From: a virus | Taxonomy: Monodnaviria; Loebvirae; Hofneiviricota; Faserviricetes; Tubulavirales; Inoviridae | IMG/VR virus record: IMGVR_UViG_2617270947_000002 | Strand: one strand, 5' to 3' | DNA: 8,569 nucleotides | Part shown: piece by piece, positions 2,369 through 7,020 of the stretch | How the letters are laid out: every line of letters begins with the position of its first letter | Numbering within the stretch: the stretch's first letter is position 1 | The notes under the pieces: generated by a model | Told to the model about the DNA's origin: nothing | What the model saw: only the letters and a program-made list of their open reading frames with translations | Database searches by the model: none | Program-made: the position numbers and the translations under genes

Positions 2369-2710
2369 TTAAATCACCCTGTTTGCATAATCAAGAAATT
2401 TTTGTTTTAAATCGAAAACAAAAACACTGATACGAGTAACCATAATAACGTTAACACACGCCTGAAAATGGTCAGGCAGTACAGACGCCATTAGATGTGA
2501 AAAATCAGCGGGTAACCCGATATACATGACCTCAGCAAGGTACTGCATTAAAAGCGTAACAGTTGTTGTAATTAGCGCAACCAATGCAACCGCTATTAAA
2601 CCTGTTTTGGTTGCAAGCCGAGCTAAAAAACTTGCCGCATAGCCAATAAGCAAAGGAACAAGACCAATAAGAAAACGCAACAATGCAGGAATACCTAATA
2701 ATAAAGGCAT
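2369..2710 (-). CDS. gVI: pVI minor coat protein, 113 aa
   Basis: [16 protein letters not shown].. resembles M13 pVI MPVLLGIPLLLRFLG..; hydrophobic; ends FDLKQKF like M13 FDVKQKI. Stop TAA 2369-2371 abuts the gI ATG (TAAATG); start ATG 2708-2710 overlaps the gIII stop (ATGA). The ORF-track GTG start at 2713 is rejected in favour of the ATG. Confidence 0.9.
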   Translation of the reverse strand: MPLLLGIPALLRFLIGLVPLLIGYAASFLARLATKTGLIAVALVALITTTVTLLMQYLAEVMYIGLPADFSHLMASVLPDHFQACVNVIMVTRISVFVFDLKQKFLDYANRVI

Positions 2711-3954
2711 CACTCACCACCTTTACGAAGCAATGAAGTTAAAGAAGTAAATACATACCAGAACGTAAGGCAATAAAAAACCCATGAAAGAGCATTTTTA
2801 ATAGTCAGCAATTTATCGCAGCCAATATCGATCTGATAAACCTCTCCGGGAAAAATAATAAAATCAGAACAACCATTACCATTAGGTAAATTGGGCAACA
2901 TAGCACCTTTATTTAAGAAAGCCTCCCATAACGCACCATGAGAATCCTTTGCAATTCCTAATTCAGATTCAGCTAAAGTGGAAGCGCTATCTAATTCAGA
3001 CCCTCCCTCCCCATAACGGGAATCGCCGCCAGAAGGATCAGCAAAACGTCCGGCTCCGCGAGTAAGGTTATTTATAGAGTCAACAAGACGATTTATATTA
3101 TTTTTAGTCTGTTCATCAGCCGACTTTTTATCATCAGATGAGGTATCTTTTTCTGTTAACTTATCATGAATCTCACTGGCAATTTTAGGTGAAGCACCTT
3201 CGATAGCTGACTGAATATCTCCTTTGGTAATACTTGAGCCATTACCACCGCCAGAACCGCTACTTGGGTTACCACCGCCTGTATCACCTTCCTCGGTATC
3301 ACCATCACCTGTATCCCCGCCTCCAGTATCACCGCCATCGCCAACAGGAGAAGAAGGCTTATCTGAAGGTGCGGCTACAGTTCCGGTAGGCTTCCATGTC
3401 GCAGCACAAACAGTGCTATCACTCTGGCAAACAATGACGCCAGTGGCCTCATATTCACAACCGTTATAATAAATATAACGATCACCGTCATAAGAATAGA
3501 CATTATTGAATACACCTTCTTCGGGGGGTTTAGCTTCACAAATCTCTTCAGGCGTAGGCTCGGAAGGTTTTTCATCAGGAATAGATCGTTGAATATCACC
3601 TATAATATAAGCAGTTAAAGTCCAGTATTTATCTTTCTGGCCTGGAGAGTCGCTGTAAGTACAAGCGTCAGAAAATACAAGACGGAATTCAGAGTTAGGC
3701 CACATTCCCTCATAAGTTGGTTTAACCTGATTAAAAACAACCTGAGCACTGTCTTTAGCTCCCTGACAGGCAGAAGCCTGCATGGTTGCATCAATATAAT
3801 AAACAGTTTGTTTAGTGCCATATTGGTTGGTTATTTGCTTACTTTCAGCATATGCAGAGCTTTGAAAAGTAGATTTAGTAATGCTCTCCCATGAATCAGC
3901 ATACGAAAAAGAAGAAATAAAAATAGAGAAAGTAATTAATATTTTCCTTTTCAT
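2710..3954 (-). CDS. gIII: pIII adsorption protein, 414 aa; signal peptide, N-terminal domain of unknown specificity, N1-like TolA-binding motif, Gly-rich linker, C-terminal anchor domain
   Basis: Start [19 protein letters not shown] (ATG 3952-3954) just after the gVIII terminator. [34 protein letters not shown] parallels M13 N1 DRYANYEGCLWNATGVVVCTGDETQCYGTWVPIG. Linker [25 protein letters not shown]-terminus [24 protein letters not shown] parallels M13 FVFGAGKPYEFSIDCDKI..LRNKES. Confidence 0.9.
3240..3345 (-). repeat. Imperfect short tandem repeats encoding the Gly/Asp/Thr-rich pIII linker
   Basis: Plus strand shows reiterated ggtatcacc / gtatcacc / gtatcccc units with ccgcc spacers; encodes (G)nDTG repeats on the minus strand. 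Confidence 0.6.
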
Positions 3955-3961
3955 AATAACC

Positions 3962-3991
3962 CAATTTAATAAAGGGGCAACAAATGCCCCT
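3962..3991 (-). terminator. Rho-independent terminator between gVIII and gIII
   Basis: Minus-strand read AGGGGCA-TTTGT-TGCCCCT followed by TTATTAAATT (7-bp GC-rich stem, U-rich tail); same position as the classic Ff terminator after gene VIII. Confidence 0.7.
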
Positions 3992-4000
3992 GAGTGAATT

Positions 4001-4243
4001 TTAAACTGCTTTGGAAGCGAATTTTTTAAAAATACGAATGGCAAGGCCAGCACCAACTACAGCAACAACGACAGGCCATACTTTACCAATAAGATCATTT
4101 GCCTGAGTCAGTAATGCATCCATTGCCTGACCTGCATAATCAGCCCCGCCTGTAGACCCATCTGCCGCAAAAGAACTCGCAGAAACAAAAAGCGCTGTTG
4201 AAGCTGCTGCAATTTTAAATTTAACAAGAGATAAAACTTTCAT
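4001..4243 (-). CDS. gVIII: pVIII major coat protein precursor, 80 aa
   Basis: [26 protein letters not shown] signal then AADGS..; C-terminus [12 protein letters not shown] resembles recalled IKe (..KKFSSKAV) and M13 (..KLFKKFTSKAS). RBS GGAG 9 nt upstream of the ATG. Confidence 0.92.
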
Positions 4244-4267
4244 ATAAATAACTCCATTAAAGTTACA

Positions 4268-4363
4268 TTACATTAATCGGTCAGAAAATGATTTAAATGA
4301 ACCGACCGCGTAGAAAAGGGCAAAACCAAAGGTATAAGCCCCGAAGAAATAAGCTATATACAT
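4268..4363 (-). CDS. gIX: pIX minor coat protein, 31 aa (hand-translated, below ORF-track size cutoff)
   Basis: ATG overlaps the gVII stop (TAATG); MYIAYFFGAYTFGFALFYAVGSFKSFSDRLM, hydrophobic; C-terminal FSDRLM parallels M13 pIX ..FTRLMETSS; correct position between gVII and gVIII. Confidence 0.6.
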   Translation of the reverse strand: MYIAYFFGAYTFGFALFYAVGSFKSFSDRLM

Positions 4364-4449
4364 TAACGAAAAACCCCCGCAGTAATTGCGCCGAGGCCAA
4401 AAGAGATAACAATGCCTGACGCTATTAATATTTGTATAACATCAGCCAT
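4363..4449 (-). CDS. gVII: pVII minor coat protein, 28 aa (hand-translated, below ORF-track size cutoff)
   Basis: ATG 4447-4449 lies 2 nt after the gV stop, with AAAGG upstream; MADVIQILIASGIVISFGLGAITAGVFR, hydrophobic; correct position and size for gVII. Confidence 0.6.
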   Translation of the reverse strand: MADVIQILIASGIVISFGLGAITAGVFR

Positions 4450-4451
4450 AT

Positions 4452-4769
4452 TTAACCTTTTATTTCAGTGATTCCACCGTCAGATGAAATATTATAAGTT
4501 ACTCCTTCTCTACCCTCCATTGACCAGACACGAACATATACAGGTATCTGGACTAACTTACCGATAAGATTATTTGCCTGATTCATTACACCGGCATTAA
4601 CAAGAGCCTGAGAAACACGAATAATAATTTGGTCTTGTTTAGTGCCGCCAAAACCATCAGGGATCTCAAGGCCAATACCAATTTCATTATAGTATCCCTG
4701 ACCGTTGACTTTATTACGCTGACGAGCACCAAGCATTTTACCTTTTACGAAAAGACCATAATTAGACAT
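4452..4769 (-). CDS. Protein in the gene-V slot, 105 aa; presumed ssDNA-binding/packaging protein by position, sequence not recognisably Ff gVp
   Basis: Strong RBS AAGGAG 6 nt before the ATG, immediately after the gII stop; sits exactly between gII and gVII. I see no similarity to the 87-aa M13 gVp as recalled. Confidence 0.7.
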   Translation of the reverse strand: MSNYGLFVKGKMLGARQRNKVNGQGYYNEIGIGLEIPDGFGGTKQDQIIIRVSQALVNAGVMNQANNLIGKLVQIPVYVRVWSMEGREGVTYNISSDGGITEIKG

Positions 4770-4780
4770 ATTACTCTCCT

Positions 4781-5095
4781 TTAATGCCAGCTACTGGCAT
4801 GTGGAATGCGGTTATAATCGAAAATTAAACCTTTCTCATAAACCCATGATGGAATTTTGGCTGGTTTAGCCTCAAGTGTTCTTACTAATGGAACAACATT
4901 ATTTGAATCAGGGGATTCACAATAAAAATTAATATCTATCCCAAAAGACAGCAATTCTTTACGATGTCGGTAGAATGTAGGTTTCGGTAACATTTCTTTC
5001 ATGTTCGCGCCCTGCTTCCACAACAAATATGTAGACTGTATTTTTCTTGGGAGATTAATTATTTTTTCATCAGTTAATATGGTATTTTGATTCAT
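4781..5095 (-). CDS. gX: pX, in-frame internal-start product of gene II (C-terminal 104 aa)
   Basis: Internal ATG (complement of cat 5093-5095) preceded by AGGGAG with a 7-nt spacer; starts MNQNTIL.. vs M13 pX MNIYDD..; size comparable to the 111-aa M13 pX. Confidence 0.7.
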   Translation of the reverse strand: MNQNTILTDEKIINLPRKIQSTYLLWKQGANMKEMLPKPTFYRHRKELLSFGIDINFYCESPDSNNVVPLVRTLEAKPAKIPSWVYEKGLIFDYNRIPHASSWH

Positions 5096-5833
5096 TTCTA
5101 TTCTCCCTGCATAGTCAGAGAATAATTTATTGGGCGTATCAATATTCCAACTATTACCAAGCGTAAGGTTCAAATCAATTAATTCAGTTGTTCTTAACGT
5201 TAATTCAATACGTAATTTATCTTTTGACCAGTCCAGTAAACCAGCGTTAACAAATTCATCAGCAATCTGGTGCCCTTTTTTACCAGATATGTGTTCATCA
5301 TATTTTGAATAAAATTTCAAACTCCAACGACGGGAGTTTTTTCCTAAGTAAACAGTGCCACCTTTACCACAGGCGCGACCGTGGCGAGTTTTCGCTTTAA
5401 ATTCTGCGGCATATAACCATGCGCGGACATTTTCTAATGTTGACAATGAATACATATAGTTGATATCAATACGCGAGATCTTAAATTGCCCTGCCATTAC
5501 CTGTCGATAGGATGAAAGATCATGAGGAATATGCAGTAATGCCAATATTCTGGCATAAGCTGTTAATACTAACCCTTGCAAATCATCGGAGCCGATAACA
5601 GAGTGACCTTGCAAAAACTTTGACGGATTGCCGTCAATATAGAGATGTGTTGCCCGACCTTCGCCATCAGATCCAACAGATCTTACTTTCATAGTGGATT
5701 CATACGAACCGCGAACGGTCAACCGTTTTAGTGTTTCCCACTCCACTGCACCGTCAGCATCAACGCTGACGACACTACCAGCCGGTAATGGTCGGTGTAT
5801 GCAAGGTAGGATCCCGGTAAACCAGTCAATCAT
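4781..5833 (-). CDS. gII: pII rolling-circle replication initiator (nickase), 350 aa
   Basis: MIDWFTGILP vs M13 MIDMLVLRLPF; PSKFLQGHSVIGSDDL vs M13 PAKVLQGHNVFGTTDL; NNVVPLVR identical to the M13 pII C-terminal motif. RBS GAGG 7 nt upstream. About 60 aa shorter than M13 pII (410 aa). Confidence 0.93.
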   Translation of the reverse strand: MIDWFTGILPCIHRPLPAGSVVSVDADGAVEWETLKRLTVRGSYESTMKVRSVGSDGEGRATHLYIDGNPSKFLQGHSVIGSDDLQGLVLTAYARILALLHIPHDLSSYRQVMAGQFKISRIDINYMYSLSTLENVRAWLYAAEFKAKTRHGRACGKGGTVYLGKNSRRWSLKFYSKYDEHISGKKGHQIADEFVNAGLLDWSKDKLRIELTLRTTELIDLNLTLGNSWNIDTPNKLFSDYAGRIEMNQNTILTDEKIINLPRKIQSTYLLWKQGANMKEMLPKPTFYRHRKELLSFGIDINFYCESPDSNNVVPLVRTLEAKPAKIPSWVYEKGLIFDYNRIPHASSWH

Positions 5834-6000
5834 GTATCGCCTCAGAGAACAATTTTGTGACCAGAAAGCCTGTCAAGAGCTTATTAGTACCAATTCAGTC
5901 ACACAAATGTACCACCCAAGATCTTACCTCTCAAGTGATTTTGTACTGGATAAGTGACATATTTGTTCTTTTGAAATGGAGCAAAAAAGTAGGATATAGA
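5834..6000. promoter_or_regulatory. Divergent intergenic control region between gII (minus) and the HTH regulator gene (plus)
   Basis: 167-bp AT-rich non-coding gap between divergent start codons; direct repeats CCTGTCAAGAG (5869-5879) and CCTCTCAAGTG (5927-5937); ATTTTGT-containing repeats at 5852-5864 and 5939-5951; -35-like TTGTAC/TTGTTC hexamers. Promoter positions not determined. Confidence 0.45.
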
Positions 6001-6453
6001 ATGAGCGACAACTTCAACAGTAATGGCTACCCGGAAGAAATGGCAGAAGACATAGACTTACAGCGGGCAGAAAGGATAAAAAAAGCGATCCTAAGCAAAT
6101 TCACATACGAAAGGATGGAAGAACTGTCAGGCATCAACATTGGCACACTGAAACGAATCGCAAACGCACAGAGGGATGCGAAAATCAGTGAGCTGGAAAA
6201 AATTGCTGAAATCACTCAGACAGACATATTTGAACTGATTTTTGGCTCCAGTAGCAGTGATATCTACGATTCCAGCAAACGCTTCTTTGAGACGAGAAGT
6301 AAAGATGCGGCTCAGGCGGCTCAATTCATCATCTACAATCTTCGTACCCTTGATGATGAGGATATCCTTTGTTTGGGGAGAGTTTCGAGTGCCTTGCAAA
6401 CAGCAACAACATCAAGAAAATGGGATGAGCTTTTCGGGAAGAAGAAAGGCTGA
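6001..6453 (+). CDS. XRE (Cro/CI)-family helix-turn-helix transcriptional regulator, 150 aa; candidate phage repressor
   Basis: RBS AGGA about 7 nt before ATG 6001; residues around 24-60 (RIKKAILSK..MEELSGINIGTLKRIANAQRDAKISELEKIAEITQTDIFELI) fit the XRE HTH pattern; divergent from the replication gene. The ORF-track upstream extension (5857-6000) is rejected. Confidence 0.8.
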   Translation: MSDNFNSNGYPEEMAEDIDLQRAERIKKAILSKFTYERMEELSGINIGTLKRIANAQRDAKISELEKIAEITQTDIFELIFGSSSSDIYDSSKRFFETRSKDAAQAAQFIIYNLRTLDDEDILCLGRVSSALQTATTSRKWDELFGKKKG

Positions 6454-6507
6454 GTCTCAGAAATGAGACAAACGTGCAGTATTACCAACACTGCACGTTC
6501 TTTATTG
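6454..6507 (+). terminator. Tandem hairpins after the regulator gene; the second is a rho-independent terminator
   Basis: GTCTCA-gaaa-TGAGAC (6454-6469), then ACGTGCAG-tattaccaaca-CTGCACGT (6472-6498) followed by TCTTTATT. Confidence 0.65.
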
Positions 6508-6541
6508 TGCGAATTTTGAACAGTAAAAAAGGATCAAAAGG

Positions 6542-6964
6542 ATGAGTAGAAATAACGAAACAAGCGGCGTTGAACTGGTTGTCGTCGGCGTATTTGCTTT
6601 CTGTCTGGCAGTTGTTGCCTGGCTAATGAAAACTTTCGATGTTGAATGGCAAACAGCACTGGAAACTGCGCCTGGCCTGATAGTCTGGCTGCTTGTTGTT
6701 GGGGCGGGGGTCTTTTTCGGGATCAAAATGGAAACAGGTCTTGTTCGCTGGGGTGCTCCACTGGCGATCGCCCTTCTGATTCCGGTATTCAAACCAATTA
6801 TTAAGGAAGCGGCCGGAGTTCGTGAAATGGGCGGATTGGTTTTCGATGATATGGTTTCGTGGTACGGAACTGGCTGGGGAATGTCTCTGATGTTCTTCGG
6901 GATTCTTATCGTCGGATACGGTCTGCTTTATTGGTGGCACAGAAGGAATTCATATTACTGGTAA
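6542..6964 (+). CDS. Small integral membrane protein, 140 aa, about 4 predicted TM helices; prophage cargo, function unknown
   Basis: AGGA-containing RBS upstream; hydrophobic stretches VELVVVGVFAFCLAVVAWLM, GLIVWLLVVGAGVFFGI, WGAPLAIALLIPVF, GMSLMFFGILIVGYGLLYWW; no motif I recognise. Confidence 0.65.
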   Translation: MSRNNETSGVELVVVGVFAFCLAVVAWLMKTFDVEWQTALETAPGLIVWLLVVGAGVFFGIKMETGLVRWGAPLAIALLIPVFKPIIKEAAGVREMGGLVFDDMVSWYGTGWGMSLMFFGILIVGYGLLYWWHRRNSYYW

Positions 6965-7020
6965 TAATATTTTACCGAATCGAGCTGATGGAAAATCGCC
7001 TTAAACAGGAGTCAATTTAA

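Follow-up and report, generated by a model that had tools for sequence, protein, structure and literature searches.

Within the 8,569-nt stretch of DNA analysed here (the window), the slot that gene V holds in filamentous phages is occupied by an ORF whose product an earlier note had described as unlike the ssDNA-binding protein (gVp) of M13, and as a possible non-orthologous replacement for it in an otherwise Ff-like module. The locus raises the question of what this protein is, where it came from and whether it does the job of gVp. The ORF is very probably gene V of a UPΦ-like, dif-integrated E. coli filamentous prophage, of the I2-2 type, and its product most likely does the job of Ff gVp.

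Gene content of the window

The window was mapped from an ORF listing and from Pfam and PHROG scans, and consists of an inovirus prophage in minus-strand orientation and, after it, the chromosomal gene hipA. The replication genes are headed by gene II (4781-5833, minus strand), an I2-2-type rolling-circle replication initiator of 350 aa (PF05144, E=5e-72; PF05155, E=4e-34). A probable gene X (4781-5095, minus strand, 104 aa) lies in frame within it and would start at Met247 of pII, where the upstream sequence reads GCAGGGAGAATAGAA-ATG and includes a GGGAG/GGAG motif. The matches to phrog_17464 and PF05155 cover pII residues 247-345 and 253-336, respectively, and gene X of I2-2 is annotated likewise.

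An IKe/I2-2-like structural module follows, also on the minus strand. Its first member is gene VII (4363-4449, 28 aa; PF19978, E=4e-10; 69% to the pVII proteins of I2-2 and IKe), the stop codon of which overlaps the start of gene IX as TAATG (4268-4363, 31 aa; phrog_28333; 53% to I2-2 and 57% to IKe pIX). Gene VIII encodes the major coat protein precursor (4001-4243, 80 aa; PF19199, E=2e-18; 55-57% to I2-2 and IKe). The morphogenesis module, assigned from Pfam and PHROG matches and 51-74% identical to I2-2 and IKe, comprises gene III (2710-3954 from the RefSeq start, 414 aa), gene VI (2369-2710), gene I (Zot, 1274-2368) and gene IV (secretin, 1-1266). In the mechanical ORF listing, gene III begins at a TTG (4056), which would make it overlap gene VIII; the RefSeq start is at 3954. 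The central part of gene III encodes glycine-rich repeats of the GGGDTG type.

The region 5857-7353, between gene II and the dif junction, is occupied by three plus-strand ORFs. The first of these (about 6001-6453) has a weak HTH_3 match (E=0.0012) and probably encodes an RstR-like repressor, divergent from gene II. The other two, a hydrophobic 140-aa ORF (6542-6964) and a 110-aa ORF (7021-7353), gave no family match in the scans. The same arrangement was found between fimA and hipBA in the closest complete E. coli genome, that of strain LSN03-016011/A. In that genome, a unit of about 776 bp is also duplicated in tandem (L002 8708-10262, against 5708-6486 of the window), of which the window has a single copy; the unit consists of the HTH regulator and the 5' end of gene II, and its extra copy bears the annotation of a second regulator plus a partial rep pseudogene.

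The gene V-slot ORF

The earlier note had given the ORF as 4452-4769 with a 105-aa product, and had stated that its position, ribosome binding site and coupling to gene II were those of a gene V; both statements were borne out. The ORF listing places it at precisely these coordinates, on the minus strand, with an ATG start and a predicted pI of 9.3. The minus strand at the gII-gV junction reads ...GGCAT TAA AGGAGAGTAAT ATG, with the gene II stop codon at 4783-4781 and the gene V ATG at 4769. The 11-nt spacer between the two genes (4770-4780), when read directly, contains the Shine-Dalgarno motif AGGAG (4780-4776) 6 nt 5' of the ATG. In M13 this spacer is also 11 nt long (gene II ends at 831 and gene V starts at 843), and in I2-2 it is 10 nt. 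On the other side, the gene V stop codon TAA (4454-4452) is followed, 2 nt further on, by the gene VII ATG (4449). A scan for promoters and terminators around gene V gave nothing bearing on the gene above shuffle expectation.

At the nucleotide level the ORF does not differ from the gene that RefSeq lists for WP_024249599.1, a 'DNA-binding protein' of E. coli LSN03-016011/A. Its product shares 98% identity with the representative of a 415-sequence cluster found on at least 1000 contigs. Selection on the gene was assessed by comparison with L013, a prophage with 85% DNA identity to the window: 44 of the 52 nucleotide differences in gene V are synonymous, and the dN/dS of 0.026 indicates strong purifying selection. 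The ORF is thus a constrained gene and not a chance reading frame.

Membership of the I2-2 gene V family

The window protein matched the Pfam family PF17426 ('Putative_G5P', 'Putative Gamma DNA binding protein G5P') with an E-value of 1.5e-52 and 176.7 bits (gathering score, 25), residues 2-104 aligning with profile positions 1-108 of 108. In BLASTP, the gene V product of I2-2 (NP_039617.1) aligned with residues 3-104 (102 residues, 97% of the length) at 42% identity and 69% positives (E=1e-30), and is itself a member of PF17426 (E=3.6e-25). Judged by these matches, the product of 4452-4769 is a member of the known and annotated I2-2-type gene V family.

This result divides what the earlier note had treated as one homologue, 'IKe/I2-2 gVp', clear similarity to which would make the protein simply the expected homologue. 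On the I2-2 side the similarity is clear, and the window protein is consequently the homologue that one would expect of a gene V product already known. On the IKe side there was no match (E=18), and the gene V products of I2-2 and IKe, which matched each other only at E=0.44, belong to two unrelated families.

The resemblance to I2-2 extends beyond the family to the length class (105 against 108 aa), to the slot between gII/gX and gVII, and to the partner pII, which is of the same type (57% identity). The differences are that I2-2 is a non-integrating, plasmid-pilus-specific phage, whereas the window phage is a dif-integrated prophage, that genes V and VII of I2-2 overlap by 11 nt where the window has a 2-nt gap, and that 58% of the residues differ.

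When 1.84 billion representative proteins were searched exhaustively with an HMM, 63 hits were obtained, 12 of them below 1e-10. When 51 of the short hits were aligned with the window protein, all 52 sequences proved to belong to PF17426, which indicates a small, self-contained family; two long proteins from the same search (P0106 and P0139) were rejected as TPR/repeat false positives. Further members were found with a word-seeded profile search in Salmonella, Brenneria, Pectobacterium, Enterobacter, Pasteurella, Haemophilus, Actinobacillus and other Pasteurellaceae, and several of these bear the source name 'single-stranded DNA-binding protein'. NCBIfam has no model for a protein of the PF17426 type, and neither the window protein nor a 55-sequence profile found a significant sequence match in the PDB.

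In I2-2, the human-saliva inovirus D_HF2_144 and Dulem virus 55, the PF17426 gene stands directly 3' of a PF05144/PF05155 Rep gene and 5' of small coat genes, and the same holds for Haemophilus ducreyi prophages, metagenomic inoviruses and UPΦ901-type E. coli prophages, that is, for every genome examined.

Comparison with Ff and IKe gVp

The statement that the protein does not resemble M13 gVp was upheld at each level of comparison. BLASTP of the window protein detected no similarity to M13 gVp (E=5.2) or to IKe gVp, and the positive control, M13 against IKe gVp, aligned at 44% identity (E=7e-26). Both of these gVp proteins are members of PF02303 (Phage_DNA_bind; E=1e-42 for M13 and 2e-23 for IKe), a family that the window protein did not match. 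A profile of 55 PF17426 sequences was aligned by hhalign with a profile of eight gVp sequences, which range from Ff and IKe to saliva inoviruses and Xanthomonas phages, with a resulting probability of 0.6%. None of the 55 PF17426 members matched PF02303, or PF17878 ('Phage single-stranded DNA-binding protein'), at E<=10.

What the window protein shares with Ff and IKe gVp (PDB 1GVP/1VQB) is the slot, a similar size (105 against 87-88 aa), the 11-nt spacing to gene II that is found in M13 and, presumably, the job of coating viral ssDNA for packaging.

Exchange of the gII/gX/gV module

Gene-by-gene BLASTP was used to locate the limits of the exchanged segment. The window pII is 57% identical to that of I2-2, 21.5% to that of IKe and 23% to that of M13 (E about 1e-7 for these two), and pV matches that of I2-2 but neither of the other two; pVII, pIX, pVIII, pIII, pVI, pI and pIV share 51-74% identity with their counterparts in both I2-2 and IKe. 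The same division was seen between I2-2 and IKe, the structural genes of which share 69-93% identity, whereas their pII proteins share about 23% and their pV proteins do not match. These identities indicate that the exchanged unit is the whole gII/gX/gV segment and not gene V alone, with its right-hand boundary at the gV/gVII junction. The suggestion of mosaicism in an otherwise Ff-like module therefore stands as regards the genome, which is mosaic, and does not stand as regards gene V being the single replaced gene, since gene II is of the I2-2 type as well. I2-2 is reported to have been presented by Stassen and colleagues in 1992 as a case of 'module evolution', in which it exchanged its replication module, and the pattern obtained here reproduces that conclusion.

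A second, independent case of module exchange is provided by two lemur-saliva inoviruses, Dulem virus 55 (L006) and Dulem virus 57 (L007), which are 80-95% identical everywhere except in rep and gV. Dulem virus 55 has a PF17426 gene V and a divergent Rep, and Dulem virus 57 has an Ff-type gVp (PF02303) and an IKe-like Rep (42% identity). The unrelated block covers about 3118-5289 of the Dulem virus 55 sequence, and the two DNAs become similar again where gV ends, so that the breakpoint again falls at the gV/gVII junction. Each sibling phage has one of the two gene V types at this position, PF17426 or a true gVp, and none has both or lacks both, which is the pattern that functional equivalence of the two predicts.

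Two JGI metagenome contigs encode an identical PF17426 protein (P0033) followed by the same downstream coat genes (L016 3948-5324 and L017 2336-3358). The gene upstream of it encodes a 346-aa PF05144/PF05155 Rep in the first contig and, in the second, a product of 228 aa for which no Pfam hit is recorded. The 'replication initiation factor' of D_HF2_144 is just 221 aa long and has the G2P_X_C domain only. Given these differing upstream genes, gene V may not always co-segregate with one type of Rep.

Predicted fold and origin of the protein

Structures were predicted for the window protein (pLDDT 89.3) and for a Haemophilus ducreyi member that is 35% identical to it (pLDDT 93.4). The prediction was confident and reproducible, and both models show the order β1-β2-β3-helix-β4-β5 of a classic OB fold, which is also the topology of bacterial SSB (PF00436). 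Foldseek searches with the model retrieved SSBs from the PDB (E about 3e-5) and phage SSBs from BFVD. The top matches were overwhelmingly ssDNA binders, with generic OB folds (pertussis toxin S5, for example) scoring almost as well. The likeness to the OB-fold domains of bacterial and mitochondrial SSB and of PriB is one of predicted structure, at a moderate TM of about 0.5. The hhalign comparison of PF17426 with the N-terminal domain of E. coli SSB gave 2.5%, and none of the 55 members matched PF00436 at E<=10. Unlike bacterial SSB, the window protein has no disordered, acidic C-terminal tail and ends (...SSDGGITEIKG) directly after β5. We claim an SSB-like OB fold for the predicted model and, in view of the moderate TM, the nearly equal scores of generic OB folds and the low hhalign value, we do not claim homology to SSB.

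Positions conserved across the family include aromatic residues at 7, 40, 82 and 92, basic residues at 16, 51, 71, 80 and 87, and two glycine-rich turns (P37-D-G-F/Y-G-G42 and G86...G89). In the predicted fold, these positions would suit hairpin loops that stack on bases.

Ff gVp is classed as an OB-like five-stranded barrel, so that both proteins would be small β-barrels of OB-like form, that of the window protein being predicted. Ff gVp is not known to have a helix between β3 and β4, whereas the predicted model of the window protein has this classic OB helix and, among the Foldseek matches listed, is closer to SSB and PriB. No gVp structure was among the matches listed for the PDB and BFVD, although gVp is present in the PDB copy that was used for the sequence searches. 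The difference in predicted fold mildly favours a separate origin.

Two accounts of that origin were weighed. PF17426 may represent an independent recruitment, into the inovirus replication module, of an SSB/PriB-like OB-fold domain of cellular or plasmid provenance, and not a diverged gVp; we put this forward tentatively, as a possibility of rather low probability. Were it true, two structurally different ssDNA-coating proteins would be interchangeable in one packaging pathway, their oligomeric state might differ and with it the architecture of the pre-assembly nucleoprotein rod, and the pairs I2-2/IKe and Dulem 55/57 would be natural experiments on what the assembly machinery recognises.

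The other account, which we consider unlikely, is that the protein and Ff/IKe gVp are true orthologues separated by extreme divergence, gII-gX-gV having descended from one ancestor and gene V having drifted, with no foreign gene involved. It agrees with the shared slot, size and spacing and with the OB-like barrel of Ff gVp, and draws on the partner gene: the pII proteins of the window, I2-2, IKe and Dulem viruses 55 and 57 all match PF05144 and PF05155, which makes the window pII still recognisable as a homologue of its IKe and M13 counterparts. Moreover, pV diverges faster than pII (44 against 60% identity between M13 and IKe, 42 against 57% between the window and I2-2). With pII at only 21-23% identity and pV diverging faster, even an orthologous pV would be unrecognisable by sequence, and the missing similarity is what common descent would lead one to expect. 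The predicted β3-β4 helix speaks against this account, as do the 0.6% hhalign probability and the failure of any of the 55 members to match either gVp family. Of the proposed non-orthologous replacement, then, one part holds, namely that the protein belongs to a sequence family different from that of Ff gVp; replacement itself is not proven, the pII proteins all being still homologous.

Proposed function

An ssDNA-binding role in replication and packaging is the most likely function of the protein; it is deduced from the position of the gene and from the predicted fold, and the Pfam name is itself qualified as 'putative'. By this reading, pII would drive rolling-circle replication and pV, binding cooperatively, would coat the viral single strand that is displaced, thereby blocking its return to the double-stranded replicative form. 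The coated ssDNA would then be passed to the pI/pIV export machinery, where pVIII would replace pV. In the predicted OB fold, the β2-β3 and β4-β5 hairpins carry the conserved aromatic residues, which could stack on bases, and the conserved basic residues, which could contact phosphates. Gene V travels with gII/gX as one replication module, which inovirus lineages have exchanged separately from their coat and assembly genes.

That the protein has some other role (as a regulator of replication or translation, or as an immunity or exclusion factor), with ssDNA handled by host SSB or another phage protein, is very improbable: OB folds do also serve as protein- and sugar-binding modules (pertussis toxin, SilF and ArtB were among the non-SSB matches of the model) and the window protein has a weak PHROG match to a scaffolding family (E=0.005), but the phage part of the window holds no other candidate ssDNA-binding gene, the slot is kept in every examined inovirus that carries PF17426, the one-or-other pattern in sibling phages fits functional equivalence with gVp, and ssDNA binders dominate the top fold matches.

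As a discovery the gene is of small value, being an ordinary, catalogued protein with a modular split that has been described for I2-2 and for the UPΦ phages. Its residual value is as a target: the literature search found no experimental report on any PF17426 member, none of which appears to have been studied biochemically, and the OB-fold prediction together with the module-swap pairs makes the family an easy one to approach. Biochemical studies of the family would address how far the assembly machinery of filamentous phages depends on the identity of the protein that coats the ssDNA.

Relation to UPΦ901 and other dif-integrated prophages

The window gV protein is already present in Pfam and RefSeq, and the gII+gV split has already been published for the UPΦ phages: genes II and V of UPΦ901 are more than 85% identical to those of YpfΦ and less than 15% similar to those of IKe and M13, a split that its authors attributed to past recombination (Shapiro and Putonti, 2020; PMC7307601). 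According to the same study, the core genes of UPΦ901 have at least 98% amino-acid identity, UPΦ901-specific primers are available, tandem prophage repeats are common in UPΦ and the most variable part of the phage is the central gIII region (PMC7307601).

The window has the features of this group, namely IKe/I2-2-like structural genes, gII and gV of the I2-2 type (as judged against I2-2) and integration at dif. Both UPΦ901 primers were absent from the window (searched with up to 3 mismatches) and from its closest genome, and were found in gene III of prophage L013. L013 has 85% DNA identity to the window over the core (85-88% for UPΦ901-type prophages), and its gV protein is 94% identical to that of the window. 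The lack of a primer match in the window and its presence in the 85%-identical L013 make the window a diverged relative of UPΦ901 and not UPΦ901. Sequence comparison thus identifies the window prophage as a diverged relative of the UPΦ group, integrated at dif next to hipA.

An identity with CUS-1/YpfΦ, which had at first been assumed from the dif/hipA location, was rejected, as YpfΦ shares only gII and gV with such a phage (PMC7307601) and the structural genes of the window are IKe/I2-2-like. Prophages of the UPΦ901/YpfΦ/CUS-1 type (RefSeq 'DNA-binding protein' WP_024249599.1 and WP_001734928.1) resemble that of the window in gene order and in the dif/hipA site; those of the UPΦ901 type differ from it in the accessory ORFs next to dif. 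In L013, for example, an 'ECs_2282 family putative zinc-binding protein' is encoded there. At least 80% of the window is held by 46 of 5426 complete E. coli genomes.

The dif site and hipA

A hybrid dif was located at 7437-7459 on the minus strand, about 77 nt from the hipA stop codon, where the sequence reads GGTGCGCATAATGTACG... An exact XerC arm of E. coli dif is followed by a non-dif centre and XerD side, which identifies the site as a prophage/chromosome hybrid. The full 28-nt E. coli dif (allowing up to 3 mismatches) and the XerD arm were not found in the window; in the closest genome, an intact dif (28/28) lies at the other end of the prophage (L002 1978-2005). An inverted dif-like site, GGTTCGCACAATGACGTTATGCTAAAG (7365-7391), lies about 50 nt from the hybrid dif, and a GC hairpin is present at 7394-7430. 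As ssDNA, the region 7355-7465, which includes this hairpin, was predicted to form a single hairpin, long and imperfect (-32.7 kcal/mol, z=-7.6), resembling the forked hairpin of CTXφ attP(+), which is used for XerCD-mediated single-strand integration.

In the window, hipA (7536-8569, minus strand) is broken into a 41-aa N-terminal ORF (8444-8569) and a 313-aa ORF (7536-8477). The break is due to a clean internal deletion of 289 bp at 8464/8465 (L002 12241-12529 is missing), which throws the coding sequence of the HipA toxin kinase out of frame; related genomes carry an intact hipA of 1323 nt.
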